A stretch of 64,000 bases of DNA from Alphaproteobacteria bacterium (GTDB taxonomy: Bacteria; Pseudomonadota; Alphaproteobacteria; JAGOMX01), in NCBI GenBank assembly GCA_041738135.1, contig JBGSQK010000018.1:4103-68102 (forward strand). The letters run 5' to 3'. The position numbers and the translations under genes were made by a program. Of the stretch, positions 27,412-29,223 are shown in pieces. Every line of letters starts with the position of its first letter. The stretch's first letter is position 1. The notes below the pieces were generated by a model. It worked only from the letters and a program-made list of their open reading frames with translations, was not told the origin of the DNA and did no database searches.

Positions 27412-29223
27412 ATGAATATCTTTGAATTATATGTTAAGGGTTTACTGAACGGTAGCGATGATAGTGATCTGATAGCAATACTCATTGCAAAAAATGCAGA
27501 GATTTCTTCCGGCGATGGAGATGATTCTATTTATATAGGCTATGCCGTCAACTCGACTATTAATTCAGGGGCAGGAAAGGACTCGATTCTGGTTGCATCG
27601 AGCTCGGGCTCCACTCTTATCGGAGGCTTGGGCGATGACTGTATGATAAGTGTCTTAGGATCGGCCAAAATGTATGGTGATCAAGGCGATAGTGTAAGCC
27701 AAGTGCCCATTTTTCTTTTCTTTAACCCCTCTAGCTTTACAACTCAGAATGTCGTCTTTACTATTCCTGCCACTGGGTTCGGAAATGATACCATGTATGG
27801 CGGCACTGGGGACGACTTAATGTGTGGTGACTCAGGTAGCATTGAAAATCAGGTTATTTTTCAAACAGCAAGTACTGGTGCTGGTCAGCAACAAACTATG
27901 CAATTCGAATTAACCGGTGCGCAGCTGGTTTTTGGTAACGATGTCATATATGGGGGTGGCGGCAATGATAGGATCAATGGTGATGCGGATCTTACCCAAG
28001 GGTTCGTTCTGGCTCCTGGAACGACCCCGGGAGCTACAGCCATTGCTAATGGAGTAAATGCCCAAGCCACCGCTACATTCATAACCAATAACAACGCATT
28101 TATATTTGGGCATGATCATATTAACGCTGGAGATGGTAATGACATTGTAAATGGTGACGTAAGTGTTGTGGCAAATGAAGCTGCATTCGGAGTTGCAACC
28201 GCAAAGAATGGTGGGCAAGCAACAAGTAACTTCTCTACCACCAATGAATTTATAATATATGGGCATGATCATATATCTGGCGGAAAAGGGAATGACATCG
28301 TTTTTGGTGATGGCCGGGACAATTCCCATAATGCAGTGGGTGGCAGTGCATATGCTGATGGCGCCGGAAGTGTAGCCAAAGTGCTAGACTGGGTAGGATT
28401 TAATCTATTACCAGGACTAGAGTCTCATTTACCACTAATCACCACGTTGGGCAATGATGTCATATCAGGCGATGCTGGCAATGACACGATTTATGGCGAT
28501 ACCAAATCCTATTTTAACGAAGCCATTGGAGGAACTGCTACTGCTCTCAACGGGGGTACTGCCTTATCCGTTTATGTGGTTGACGGCACTATCGTTACTT
28601 ACGGGAAAGATCAATTATCTGGAGGCGATGGAAACGACAAAATTGTGGGCGATACTTTATCCACGGAACTTGTGCTTACCCAAGGAACAGCTGTGGGAGT
28701 CGGTGCAACAGTGGTTACATCTATCATTAACTTCACTCAAAGTATGGGGGATGACAATATCTTCGGTGGGGGTGGTAATGATTTGATTCTCGGGGACTGC
28801 CTAGATTATACTTTGTTGGATACCACGCTATCGGTGTCTACGGTCGGTGGACACTTACGTGTAGCGGATCATTTCAACAACTCAATTACTTTTGGAAATG
28901 ATCTGATGTCGGGAGGATCGGGTTGCGATAATTTTATTACCTCCGTCGCTCTATCAACCAATAACAAGCTTATTGCCCAAGGGTTTGATAAGATCACAGA
29001 CTTCAACGTTGCCAGTGACATATTAACCTTTGTTGGCACTACTATGGCTATTTTGACAGCTCACACCCAATTCGTGTATAGCGGAAATGATACCGTGATT
29101 AAGTTTGATGGAGGAGTCGGAGGATCGATTACACTTCAAAACGTAAATGTTTCATGCTTGGGCGACCTTAATATAACAACGCTCGCTGATTCTTCAACCC
29201 TATCCGGACAATTTACTGGTTAA
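27412..29223 (+). CDS. RTX (hemolysin-type calcium-binding repeat) protein, putative T1SS substrate
   Basis: 603 aa with at least 9 GGxGxDxxx nonapeptide repeats (GGTGDDLMCGD, GGGGNDRINGD, GGKGNDIVFGD, GDAGNDTIYGD, GGDGNDKIVGD, GGGGNDLILGD). It has no N-terminal signal peptide and an acidic/Gly-rich C-terminus. Confidence 0.8.
   Translation: MNIFELYVKGLLNGSDDSDLIAILIAKNAEISSGDGDDSIYIGYAVNSTINSGAGKDSILVASSSGSTLIGGLGDDCMISVLGSAKMYGDQGDSVSQVPIFLFFNPSSFTTQNVVFTIPATGFGNDTMYGGTGDDLMCGDSGSIENQVIFQTASTGAGQQQTMQFELTGAQLVFGNDVIYGGGGNDRINGDADLTQGFVLAPGTTPGATAIANGVNAQATATFITNNNAFIFGHDHINAGDGNDIVNGDVSVVANEAAFGVATAKNGGQATSNFSTTNEFIIYGHDHISGGKGNDIVFGDGRDNSHNAVGGSAYADGAGSVAKVLDWVGFNLLPGLESHLPLITTLGNDVISGDAGNDTIYGDTKSYFNEAIGGTATALNGGTALSVYVVDGTIVTYGKDQLSGGDGNDKIVGDTLSTELVLTQGTAVGVGATVVTSIINFTQSMGDDNIFGGGGNDLILGDCLDYTLLDTTLSVSTVGGHLRVADHFNNSITFGNDLMSGGSGCDNFITSVALSTNNKLIAQGFDKITDFNVASDILTFVGTTMAILTAHTQFVYSGNDTVIKFDGGVGGSITLQNVNVSCLGDLNITTLADSSTLSGQFTG

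Follow-up and report, generated by a model that had tools for sequence, protein, structure and literature searches.

In rhizobia, substrates of the type I secretion system (T1SS) that are unlinked to their exporter are the rule, and the PrsDE system exports at least 13 dispersed substrates, including NodO (PMC2275737). [quoted passage not shown] A fragment of 105 residues (LARD3) is enough for export, and a VTLIG motif is common to T1SS substrates (PMC3430570). A separate type of calcium-binding fold, a continuous and non-canonical beta-roll made of 19-residue repeats, has been described for Region IV of MpIBP (PMC6891781).

We analyzed a stand-alone RTX gene in a stretch of 64,000 nucleotides of alphaproteobacterial DNA (the 64-kb window). 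Its product belongs to a rare branch of the RTX proteins, a very large family, and is probably a T1SS-exported, Ca2+-folded and non-enzymatic protein that forms an extracellular or cell-surface solenoid with a structural or adhesive role.

The RTX gene, its flanks and its relatives

The predicted open reading frame proved genuine, and its exact coordinates, strand and ATG start were recovered. The features of the locus, in order, are as follows.

27012..27411, no strand: intergenic region, 400 bp, AT-rich (34% GC versus 43.5% for the window)
27400..27407, plus strand: Shine-Dalgarno sequence GGGAGAAG, with the GGAG core 7 nt upstream of the ATG, as read from the sequence
27412..29223, plus strand: RTX-family gene, ATG start, 603 aa, 61.5 kDa, pI 4.05
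27451..27696, plus strand: four 19-residue repeats (residues 14-95), motif xGxGxDxIxVxxxxxSxIx, register 14/33/52/71
27697..27771, plus strand: connector VPIFLFFNPSSF... (residues 96-120), low confidence
27772..28944, plus strand: eight super-repeats of 48-63 aa, consensus about 51 aa (residues 121-511), from a 46-unit consensus
28888..29220, plus strand: last RTX doublet and non-repeat C-terminal domain (QGFDKITDFNVASDILTFVG ... FDGGVGGSITLQNVNVSCLGDL ...; residues 493-603)
29128..29142, plus strand: ITLQN (residues 573-577), aligned with VTL(I/V)G, a motif of hydrophobic character in T1SS lipases ('GDSVTLVGVALNSLSA' in PML)
29241..29273, plus strand: perfect 13-bp hairpin with a 7-nt loop, RNAfold dG -20.2 kcal/mol

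The encoded protein is acidic (63 Asp and Glu versus 16 Lys and Arg), with abundant Gly, Thr, Ser, Asn, Ala and Asp and few Lys or Arg. It contains five Cys, none of which is conserved in the alignment with its relatives.

The intergenic region at 27012..27411 separates the RTX gene from a divergent Trp/Tyr permease gene and presumably holds the promoters of both. The equivalent upstream regions of two relatives are likewise AT-rich (27% and 20% GC), and relatives carry GGAGG at the same distance from the start as the Shine-Dalgarno sequence found here. A 400-bp AT-rich promoter region had been predicted; its length and AT-richness are correct, but a sigma-70 consensus scan returned no match on the plus strand and matched the minus strand only (27192-27164 and 27385-27358). 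At the predicted terminator the hairpin is present, beginning 18 nt past the stop codon, but it lacks a T-tract and the consensus terminator scan called no canonical terminator there, and it is the probable end or stabilizer of the transcript. A hairpin of 17 or more bp also lies 3' of the homologue in L005. The GC3 of the RTX gene (0.381) is close to the window mean (0.414 ± 0.067; z = -0.49), and a recent horizontal acquisition, as a low GC3 would have suggested, was rejected. Scans of the 64-kb window for tRNAs and Rfam families gave no matches.

The RTX gene is monocistronic and lies at a synteny breakpoint, with an accessory, non-syntenic location. It is missing from the equivalent locus in four clade relatives, and its distribution is patchy. 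None of the 49 open reading frames of at least 150 aa in the window encodes an ABC_tran, HlyD or OEP/TolC domain, and the loci of six relatives, inspected with their flanks, likewise show no T1SS genes. The original prediction described an RTX, T1SS-substrate-like protein without adjacent T1SS genes, and the same arrangement is seen in every relative with a readable neighborhood. It also stated that no hlyB, hlyD or tolC homologue lies within 30 kb, which is correct for the window but overstated upstream, where 27.4 kb are visible. What does not stand is the view of this orphan status as remarkable. The arrangement is unsurprising because the rhizobial PrsDE substrates are equally dispersed, and SMc04171 depends on TolC for its secretion; judged by this analogy, an exporter-less gene arrangement is normal for bacteria of this group. 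We should note that a Fic-domain gene is located on the opposite side of the same conserved triad, with a class-3 lipase and PagL nearby.

Full-length relatives share 58-62% identity with the RTX protein. The family is rare and comprises about 17 clusters, all of them stand-alone genes in differing neighborhoods, with a collinear full-length architecture, a conserved start (MANIF…/MA.TI.GT) and a conserved end down to 29% identity. A scan of 185,579 species representatives revealed no close relative, the best match being L006 (37% identity), whose contig carries the label of a filamentous cyanobacterium with a free-living habit. A scan of metagenome contigs with alignment A3, based on generic RTX patterns, yielded generic RTX proteins only and no family members (mostly 23-33% identity, with short best segments of up to 41%). 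The named relatives of BamB include 'Caedibacter sp. 38-128' (39% identity), and those of RecA include Ca. Paracaedibacteraceae and Rickettsiales MAGs (about 79-83%).

Repeat anatomy of the RTX protein

The RTX assignment made originally is confirmed by a match to Pfam HemolysinCabind (PF00353) over seven stretches, which scores 60.7 bits (E = 1.2e-16) where the gathering cutoff is 23. The refuting condition named for it, repeats that miss this profile, did not occur. HemolysinCabind is the only Pfam domain found in the 603 aa, and no enzymatic domain was found with Pfam or NCBIfam. The protein has no passenger domain and is built almost wholly of calcium-binding repeats. It contains seven strict GGxGxD motifs; the nine or more canonical copies that had been reported are reached, as nine, only when the first Gly is relaxed. 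In total there are 23 nonapeptide cores of the type 'GxD/NxU', 16 of which form eight doublets. The AlphaFold model is confident (pLDDT 81.5, pTM 0.78) and shows beta-structure throughout, between residue 2 and roughly residue 590.

The N-terminal part has its best PDB match in 3P4G, which the family profile hits over residues 11-95 in three successive stretches (E = 3.2e-7). Residues 14-95 are modeled as part of a series of beta-strands that begins at residue 2 (pLDDT 85-92), and their sequence suggests a non-canonical Ca2+ beta-solenoid of the 3P4G type. The absence of a recognized enzymatic domain at the N-terminus was borne out by the domain searches, while the proposed novel toxin domain gives way to these 19-residue repeats. 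The other original suggestion, an adhesin or S-layer-like protein, may still apply. The repeat segment aligns to many stretches within proteins of 1,200-5,800 aa, and its likeness to the repeats of an RTX adhesin agrees with the overall reading given above. Around the connector that follows, pLDDT falls below 50 (residues 91-105) and the deep alignment has many indels.

The central part is made of eight super-repeats, whose boundaries and 51-aa consensus were drawn from 46 units. Each super-repeat consists of an 18-aa RTX nonapeptide doublet (xxFGNDxIxGGxGNDxIxGD) and a conserved spacer of 27-42 aa that is rich in Gly, Ala and Thr (..NEAxGGTATAxNGGxAxS..). The longest tandem run of nonapeptides at 9-residue spacing is two: the eight doublets stand isolated, each separated from the next by a spacer, and the same maximum applies to 16 of the 17 listed members of the collinear family, a set that includes this protein. 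Tandem nonapeptide blocks, which typically have at least four copies and form a continuous two-sheet beta-roll, are not present in the RTX protein. The model predicts six strands per super-repeat unit, and a four-unit super-repeat model gave no significant match in the PDB. Besides the RTX protein itself, the super-repeat is found in the roughly 17 collinear clusters, and at least 31 larger proteins also carry it. Those larger proteins that share the module contain RTX repeats only, with an additional PA14 carbohydrate-binding domain in one of them.

C-terminal domain and proposed export

The C-terminal string given in the original prediction (DFNVASDILTFVG) is present in the protein. Residues 493-603 form a putative beta-roll cap and a putative, uncleaved T1SS recognition region. 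A profile of the C-terminal domain only (A5) matched the R-modules of AlgE6 and AlgE4 (E = 1.4e-4 to 1e-3), the lipase of Pseudomonas MIS38 over its final 80 residues (532-611 of 617; E = 7e-4 to 2e-3), block V of CyaA (E = 3e-3) and the C-termini of serralysin/PrtC (E about 0.05). Searched by itself against NCBIfam, this domain matches the models for serralysin, EglC glycanase, PueAB esterase and SMc04171. The high-probability Foldseek matches of the AlphaFold model are beta-rolls of T1SS substrates, specifically the CyaA RTX domain, family I.3 lipases, serralysins and the AlgE R-module. Within the close family, T574 and L575 of ITLQN do not vary, and L575 is found in 14 of 14 sequences. Several distant members end in a hydrophobic tail (PIVV, LVIV, TIIV) typical of the protease/lipase class of T1SS substrates.

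Other observations count against the protein being a T1SS substrate. A single-sequence PDB search with the C-terminus found nothing significant, so that the relationship is detected by family profiles only, and a similarity at this level (E about 1e-3 to 1e-4) would weaken the case. The equivalent of VTLIG is ITLQN, the extreme C-terminus (…SGQFTG) lacks an acidic-plus-hydrophobic tail, no T1SS component is encoded in the 64-kb window, and the NCBIfam TIGR-type models of T1SS C-terminal targets gave no match at E<=1.

An N-terminal signal peptide, which would have indicated a different export route, was looked for and not seen. Neither a signal-peptide-like N-terminus nor a TM-like window is present in the RTX protein or in 13 relatives, as judged by inspection of charge and hydrophobic runs for the former and by a 19-residue window with a mean Kyte-Doolittle hydropathy >1.6 for the latter. 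The N-terminus is acidic and is modeled as a beta-strand that belongs to the fold, the longest uncharged run within the first 35 residues is seven, and there is no positive n-region followed by an uncharged hydrophobic core.

We infer an export route, a Ca2+-triggered folding and a surface or structural role. Synthesis would take place in the cytoplasm, with no signal peptide, and the low Ca2+ there would keep the protein unfolded, as may be expected of RTX proteins in general. A T1SS whose genes would lie at another place in the genome, composed of an ABC transporter, a membrane-fusion protein and a TolC-like channel, would recognize the uncleaved C-terminal 110 or so residues and thread the protein out with its C-terminus leading. 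Outside the cell, Ca2+ binding to the Gly/Asp loops would produce an elongated beta-solenoid composed of the C-terminal cap, eight units of about 51 residues and an N-terminal stack of four 19-residue coils, each unit contributing one Ca2+-binding RTX turn and a conserved non-Ca2+ spacer. Since no catalytic, pore-forming or anchoring domain is found, the folded rod would most likely be structural or adhesive, and extracellular or located at the surface. Against a Ca2+-ratchet mode of folding, the protein has no tandem blocks of three or more, the arrangement on which the ratchet model was established.

If true, the protein would represent a compact, all-repeat branch of the RTX superfamily in which conserved coils that bind no Ca2+ dilute the binding turns one-in-three, and would be a natural system for testing what RTX content Ca2+-ratchet secretion and folding require. 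It would also offer a potential new scaffold for the design of Ca2+-switchable proteins, and could serve as a marker, secreted or at the surface, for an uncultured alphaproteobacterial clade about which little is known. The understanding of type I secretion is unchanged by this gene, its 'orphan' arrangement being ordinary. A further proposal, doubtful although conceivable, is that the super-repeat of about 51 residues is a distinct class of Ca2+-dependent beta-solenoid (one coil in about three binding Ca2+, with no solved counterpart) and that the proteins of about 600 aa are self-assembling subunits of surface fibers or lattices in an uncultured, possibly protist-associated, alphaproteobacterial clade.

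Alternative readings and comparison with known systems

The protein could act as a secreted effector that interacts with a host or with membranes, either as a NodO-like former of cation channels or as a protist-host factor, with the activity located on the solenoid surface. NodO, too, consists of RTX repeats and lacks a passenger domain, the RTX gene has an accessory location at a synteny breakpoint with the Fic-domain gene, the class-3 lipase and PagL in its vicinity, and the occurrence of Caedibacter, Paracaedibacteraceae and Rickettsiales among the BamB and RecA relatives is compatible with a host-associated lineage. We consider this role unlikely, however, as no hydrophobic or amphipathic segment is found (no 19-residue window with a mean Kyte-Doolittle value >1.6), no acyltransferase gene is located nearby, the RTX_toxin model of NCBIfam reaches 26 bits against a cutoff of 1000, and the relatives include L006 with its free-living cyanobacterial label. 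A role in an S-layer or surface lattice, in the manner of RsaA, SwmA or oscillin, i.e., as an abundant T1SS-secreted protein that is crystallized by Ca2+ on the outer membrane and expressed from a strong monocistronic promoter, is quite improbable. Its acidic composition rich in Gly, Thr, Ser, Asn, Ala and Asp would fit, as would the monocistronic gene, which here and in relatives has a long leader that is AT-rich and is followed by a strong hairpin on its 3' side. Surface proteins of the RTX type that are all-repeat and rod-like are known as well, among them oscillin (646 residues), together with the RTX S-layers (PMC3034196). RsaA (6p5t) is also the top Foldseek match by E-value (1.6e-4), but with a probability of 0.35 and a TM of 0.11 this match is not meaningful, and both profile searches of the PDB missed RsaA. 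The protein has no N-terminal anchoring domain and contains five non-conserved Cys, whereas RTX S-layer proteins typically have none (PMC3034196). No rsaDE-like genes adjoin the gene, its GC3 is unremarkable, and its absence from the locus of four clade relatives, together with its patchy distribution, would be unusual for a core envelope layer.

It is very unlikely that the protein bypasses the T1SS altogether, whether as a cytoplasmic or periplasmic Ca2+-binder, as a protein using another export route, or as the decaying remnant of a larger RTX adhesin gene. The lack of T1SS genes in the 64-kb window, the non-canonical motif at the extreme C-terminus and the 19-residue repeats, which are otherwise found inside giant proteins, would agree with such a reading. 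A remnant is difficult to reconcile with about 17 clusters that keep the collinear full length, including start and end, to 29% identity. The N-terminus is neither Sec- nor Tat-like, and the C-terminal domain has its homologues in secreted proteins. RTX beta-rolls require Ca2+ at a roughly millimolar level, which is not available in the cytoplasm (PMC3034196). A secreted, Ca2+-folded structural or adhesive solenoid remains the preferred reading.

Among named families, SMc04171 (NF046115) is the nearest, but it is a distant relative. It is likewise alphaproteobacterial, has a size of about 570-600 aa and carries Ca2+-binding repeats, and positions 317-566 of 574 in the family model are collinear with residues 343-583 of the RTX protein, covering repeat units and C-terminal domain. 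Membership of this family was rejected, with 40 bits against a curated cutoff of 625 (of 14 members of the family studied here, none came near the cutoff, the best reaching E = 2.7e-12).

The last RTX turn and cap are shared, at profile level, with MIS38 PML, the 'LARD' of P. fluorescens TliA, the AlgE R-modules, CyaA block V and serralysins, all experimentally established T1SS substrates, in the pattern GND..SGG.G.D.F….G.D.I.DF….D.L.F.G … F.GG.S(I/V)TL….V..SL (about 90 residues versus the final 80 of the lipase). In the lipases, AlgE, CyaA and the serralysins, an enzyme or toxin domain occupies the N-terminus and the nonapeptides form tandem blocks of 4-8 or more, while the RTX protein has neither feature and carries isolated doublets. 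A pore-forming toxin of the HlyA/CyaA type was discarded (NF033943 at 26.4 bits versus 1000, no hydrophobic window, no acyltransferase gene in the window).

The structure 3P4G corresponds to Region IV of the ice-binding RTX adhesin of Marinomonas primoryensis (MpIBP/MpAFP), with 19-residue repeats and one GxGxD Ca2+ loop per coil. It has 12 coils versus about four in the RTX protein, and MpIBP is a 1.5-MDa protein with Ig-like extenders and a retention module, both of which are absent from the 603 aa. The ice-binding face of MpIBP is a regular Thr/Asx ladder, which the loops found here (SGDGDD, SGAGKD, GGLGDD) do not form. Given the four coils and the lack of such a ladder, an ice-binding function was set aside on reading the sequence. 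A giant RTX adhesin of the MpIBP/LapA type (>1,500 aa, with N-terminal retention module, Ig-like extenders, ligand-binding domains and C-terminal RTX) was rejected as well, given the size of 603 aa and HemolysinCabind as the sole domain; only the 19-residue repeat type is held in common.

No sequence similarity to RsaA was detected in the PDB profile searches. The super-repeat of doublet and conserved spacer sets the RTX protein apart from NodO, oscillin and the RTX S-layers, for which it is not described in the available text of PMC3034196. In common with NodO, oscillin and RsaA, the RTX protein is acidic, rich in Gly and Asp and probably of the T1SS type, and its repeats would be the functional body of the protein (PMC3034196).

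The RTX gene, its window and the absence of nearby exporter genes

The gene under study lies exactly where the original prediction placed it (27412-29223, + strand, ATG start, 603 aa), and overlapping ORFs in other frames or on the opposite strand are all short and were treated as spurious. A Shine-Dalgarno GGAG is found 7 nt before the ATG. The upstream 400 bp are AT-rich as had been claimed (34% vs 43.5% GC), but no sigma-70 consensus site was found on the + strand of this region to support the promoter. The sigma-70-like matches in it (27164-27192 and 27358-27385, 10/12 and 9/12) occur on the - strand only, and both face the divergent Trp/Tyr permease gene. 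Since there is no match on the RTX strand, the promoter may be of a non-sigma-70-consensus type. The proposed terminator was recovered as a perfect 13-bp hairpin (29241-29273, dG about -20 kcal/mol), but it has no T-tract, so that the consensus scan calls no terminator.

A Pfam scan of all 49 credible ORFs of at least 150 aa identifies the window as a core chromosome segment of alphaproteobacterial character. The genes are ordered hemH, hemJ, rho, gidB, parA, parB, alaS, recA, the cpaA-D pilus genes, fumC, the Trp/Tyr permease gene and the RTX gene, with a yfgM-like gene, bamB, der, a Fic-domain gene, pagL and nrdAB on its 3' side and leuS, a Lon-like protease and a prolyl oligopeptidase farther downstream. 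No tRNA genes or Rfam matches occur across the window. ABC-transporter, HlyD/MFP and OEP/TolC domains were found in none of the 49 ORFs; the claim that no type I secretion system (T1SS) genes lie within 30 kb thus holds for the 34.8 kb downstream, and upstream for the 27.4 kb that are visible. Other loci in the window are as follows.

12630-13505: stretch of ~880 bp from an LppC-like gene to alaS, without an ORF of at least 150 aa
18653-22556, + strand: partial Tad/Flp pilus cluster (cpaA prepilin peptidase, cpaB, cpaC secretin, cpaD), breaking off sharply at tadA (deaminase), which is convergent; neither cpaE/cpaF/tadBC nor a pilin gene beside it among ORFs of at least 150 aa
33121-34614, + strand: Fic-domain protein, 497 aa (Fic residues 329-413), immediately 3' of der
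40552-41310, - strand: ORF of 252 aa without Pfam match, beside the class-3 lipase gene
41753-42280, + strand: ORF of 175 aa without Pfam match; GC3 0.26, the window's lowest
42343-43734, - strand: class-3 lipase gene, 463 aa
56396-57179: 785-bp gap without an ORF of at least 150 aa, ahead of the next three genes
57180-63881, + strand: three large co-directional genes with strong AT skew (up to 0.24), encoding a 686-aa protein with a central RNase_T exonuclease domain only, a 763-aa Lon-like protease (AAA + Lon_C) without a recognised N-terminal LON domain, and the prolyl oligopeptidase

The region 40552-43734 is a possible further patch of accessory or effector-like genes, and the Fic protein could act as a secreted AMPylating effector or be of the toxin-antitoxin type.

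Family distribution and gene placement

The query truly belongs to the RTX proteins, and its own family is rare and unannotated. When 5.8 billion proteins were searched by word index, the query itself and five full-length relatives (58-62% identity) were returned, after which identity drops to 26%; one of the five is annotated as ‘MAG: hypothetical protein, Alphaproteobacteria bacterium’ (GCA_019746225.1). Among 1.84 billion representatives, an exhaustive HMM search gave 2,635 matches, as is usual for RTX proteins, with only about a dozen further clusters matching collinearly in a single stretch (530-690 aa, down to 29% identity), all singletons and mostly from raw-read assemblies. There is no close relative among 185,579 GTDB species representatives. 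The best GTDB relative (37% identity, 564-584 aa) lies on a 6.4-kb contig (locus L006) filed under the cyanobacterium Elainella saxicola, directly downstream of a two-ORF transposase that we take to be IS630-like (transposase and relative together at L006 1630-2762 and 3762-5516), an arrangement that may point to a mobile family or to a contaminant contig. The nearest curated family, NF046115 (SMc04171 family calcium-binding repeat protein), is collinear with query residues 343-583. Membership was rejected in favor of mere relatedness, since the query reaches 40 bits where the cutoff is 625, a value that no family member nears.

In every readable neighbourhood the gene stands alone, each time in a different housekeeping context: between gatCAB with an endonuclease-phosphatase gene and ligA in one genome, between a K+ channel/RND pump and carbonic anhydrase in another, and 3' of an RND pump in a distant relative. 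All three loci compared have the AT-rich leader and GGAG site, and two of them a strong 3' hairpin. RND efflux pump genes adjoin the relatives P0002 (62% identity; MFP + ACR_tran, L005 4995-9105) and P0007 (26%; an ACR_tran-OEP fusion of 1,522 aa, JGI 3300047160 contig), i.e., two of six neighbourhoods, which is probably coincidence because RND pumps are not T1SS.

By its RecA and BamB sequences, the host belongs to a separate clade of uncultured Alphaproteobacteria, within which BamB identities are 53-70%, against no more than 41% beyond it; Ca. Paracaedibacteraceae and Rickettsiales MAGs are among the named RecA neighbours (~79-83%), an affiliation that is not decisive. Four clade members conserve the block uvrD – methyltransferase – trxB-like – enoyl-CoA hydratase – yfgM – bamB – der – pfkB, from which the RTX gene is absent in all four. 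The Fic gene is likewise missing at the equivalent site in four clade relatives, with pfkB there instead. In the window genome, the RTX gene and the Fic gene lie at opposite ends of the yfgM-bamB-der triad. Judged from this gene order, the RTX gene is accessory and located at a synteny breakpoint, and both genes, as they bracket the conserved triad, look like accessory insertions. At 0.381, the GC3 of the RTX gene is in the usual range of the window (0.414 ± 0.067), giving no compositional sign of recent import.

C-terminal domain and export route

The repeats match PF00353 (HemolysinCabind) in seven stretches (E=1.2e-16, 60.7 bits, gathering score 23) and are therefore real, far beyond chance; the failure to fit the RTX profile that had been considered did not occur. 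The strict GGxGxD motif is present seven times, and the predicted minimum of nine is reached only once the first position is relaxed. The N-terminus (MNIFELYVKGLLNGSDDSD…) is acidic, with a longest uncharged run of 7 in the first 35 residues, and no signal peptide is present. Neither the query nor 13 relatives contain a TM-like window, and none of these relatives has a signal-peptide-like N-terminus; they open directly with the RTX-style motif M-A-x-T-I-x-G-T-x-x-D.

A 14-sequence family profile aligns to the last 80 residues (532-611 of 617) of the family I.3 lipase of Pseudomonas sp. MIS38, pairing GND..SGG.G.DNF…QGFD.I.DF….D.L.F.G…DT.I.FDGGGSITL….V.SL.D of the family with GNDLMESGGGADTFLF…FGQDRVVGF.SNDKLVFLG…DTVLKF.GGDSVTLVGVALNSLSA of the lipase. 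A profile restricted to the C-terminal domain (107 positions), made to exclude help from RTX repeats elsewhere, matched in the PDB the AlgE6/AlgE4 R-modules (E=1.4e-4 to 1e-3), the C-terminus of this lipase (E=7e-4 to 2e-3), CyaA block V (E=3e-3) and serralysin/PrtC C-termini (E about 0.05). As a single sequence, the query C-terminus gave no significant match in the PDB search. Against NCBIfam, the isolated C-terminal domains matched the serralysin, EglC glycanase, PueAB esterase and SMc04171 models. These proteins, like AlgE, the lipase and CyaA, are all T1SS substrates. The query ends in …SGQFTG, unlike an acidic-plus-hydrophobic tail, and several distant family members end in PIVV, LVIV or TIIV. 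For the lipase, the C-terminal 105 residues are sufficient for export, and VTLIG counts among the motifs that T1SS substrates have in common (PMC3430570); at the corresponding alignment position the query reads ITLQN. The C-terminal profile matches, the RTX repeats, the lack of a signal peptide and a pI of 4.05 make the query very probably a T1SS substrate.

rtx and secretion genes are ‘mostly’ linked, with exceptions such as ApxIIA (PMC3034196), and SMc04171 secretion is TolC-dependent (PMC2912261). As linkage is not universal, the ‘orphan’ arrangement is, in our reading, not a puzzle.

Repeat anatomy, predicted fold and function

The query consists of repeats end to end, without a passenger domain.

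Residues ~14-95: four 19-residue repeats (GSDDSDLIAILIAKNAEIS / SGDGDDSIYIGYAVNSTIN / SGAGKDSILVASSSGSTLI / GGLGDDCMISVLGSAKMYG)
Residues 96-120: low-confidence connector
Residues 121-511: eight super-repeats of 48-63 aa each
Residues ~493-603: last doublet and non-repeat C-terminal domain

In the consensus built from 46 units of six proteins, the super-repeat starts with a double nonapeptide (itFGNDtISGGaGND.I.GD), one full beta-roll turn, followed by a spacer of 27-42 aa, which is conserved too (….neVaGGTAtA.ggg.a.s…). Tandem runs of nonapeptide cores do not exceed two in 16 of 17 collinear family members, the exception (P0022) having one run of four; among 139 other top matches this applies to 31, the longest run having a median of 3 and a maximum of 25. 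Larger proteins with the super-repeat contain only RTX repeats, with a PA14 domain added in one case. The family combines this distinctive ‘isolated doublet plus conserved spacer’ unit with an N-terminal stack of 19-residue repeats.

The AlphaFold2 model, based on an alignment of only six sequences, is all-beta and confident (pLDDT 81.5, pTM 0.78), each super-repeat forming six strands: three beta-roll-like strands of 3 residues, then spacer strands of ~9, 5 and 9 residues. Foldseek returned local PDB matches only (global TM-score at most 0.22), those of high probability being T1SS-substrate beta-rolls (CyaA RTX 7rah, family I.3 lipases 2z8x/2qua, serralysins and the AlgE4 R-module).

The best-supported interpretation is a Ca2+-folded, non-enzymatic beta-solenoid: a T1SS encoded elsewhere in the genome would carry the query out, Ca2+ would drive its folding, and the folded protein would act as a structural or adhesive element outside the cell. 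An RsaA/oscillin-like surface lattice or fibre is unlikely; RsaA gave the best Foldseek E-value, yet with a probability of 0.35 and a TM-score of 0.11. A NodO-like or host-interaction effector is slightly less unlikely, in a protein made of repeats throughout, and a non-secreted protein or gene remnant is the least probable, beside the export-type C-terminal matches and relatives of full length. A pore-forming toxin was ruled out by the lack of a hydrophobic domain and of an acyltransferase gene in the window and by the NF033943 score.

The 19-residue-repeat segment matches many stretches of 1,200-5,800-aa proteins in the exhaustive HMM search. The close-family profile matches 3P4G over these repeats (E=3.2e-7, three consecutive stretches). 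Repeats of the 3P4G type adopt a non-canonical RTX beta-roll fold (PMC6891781). Residues ~14-95 of the query thus resemble region IV of the Marinomonas primoryensis ice-binding adhesin (3P4G), a Ca2+-bound beta-solenoid of 19-residue repeats.
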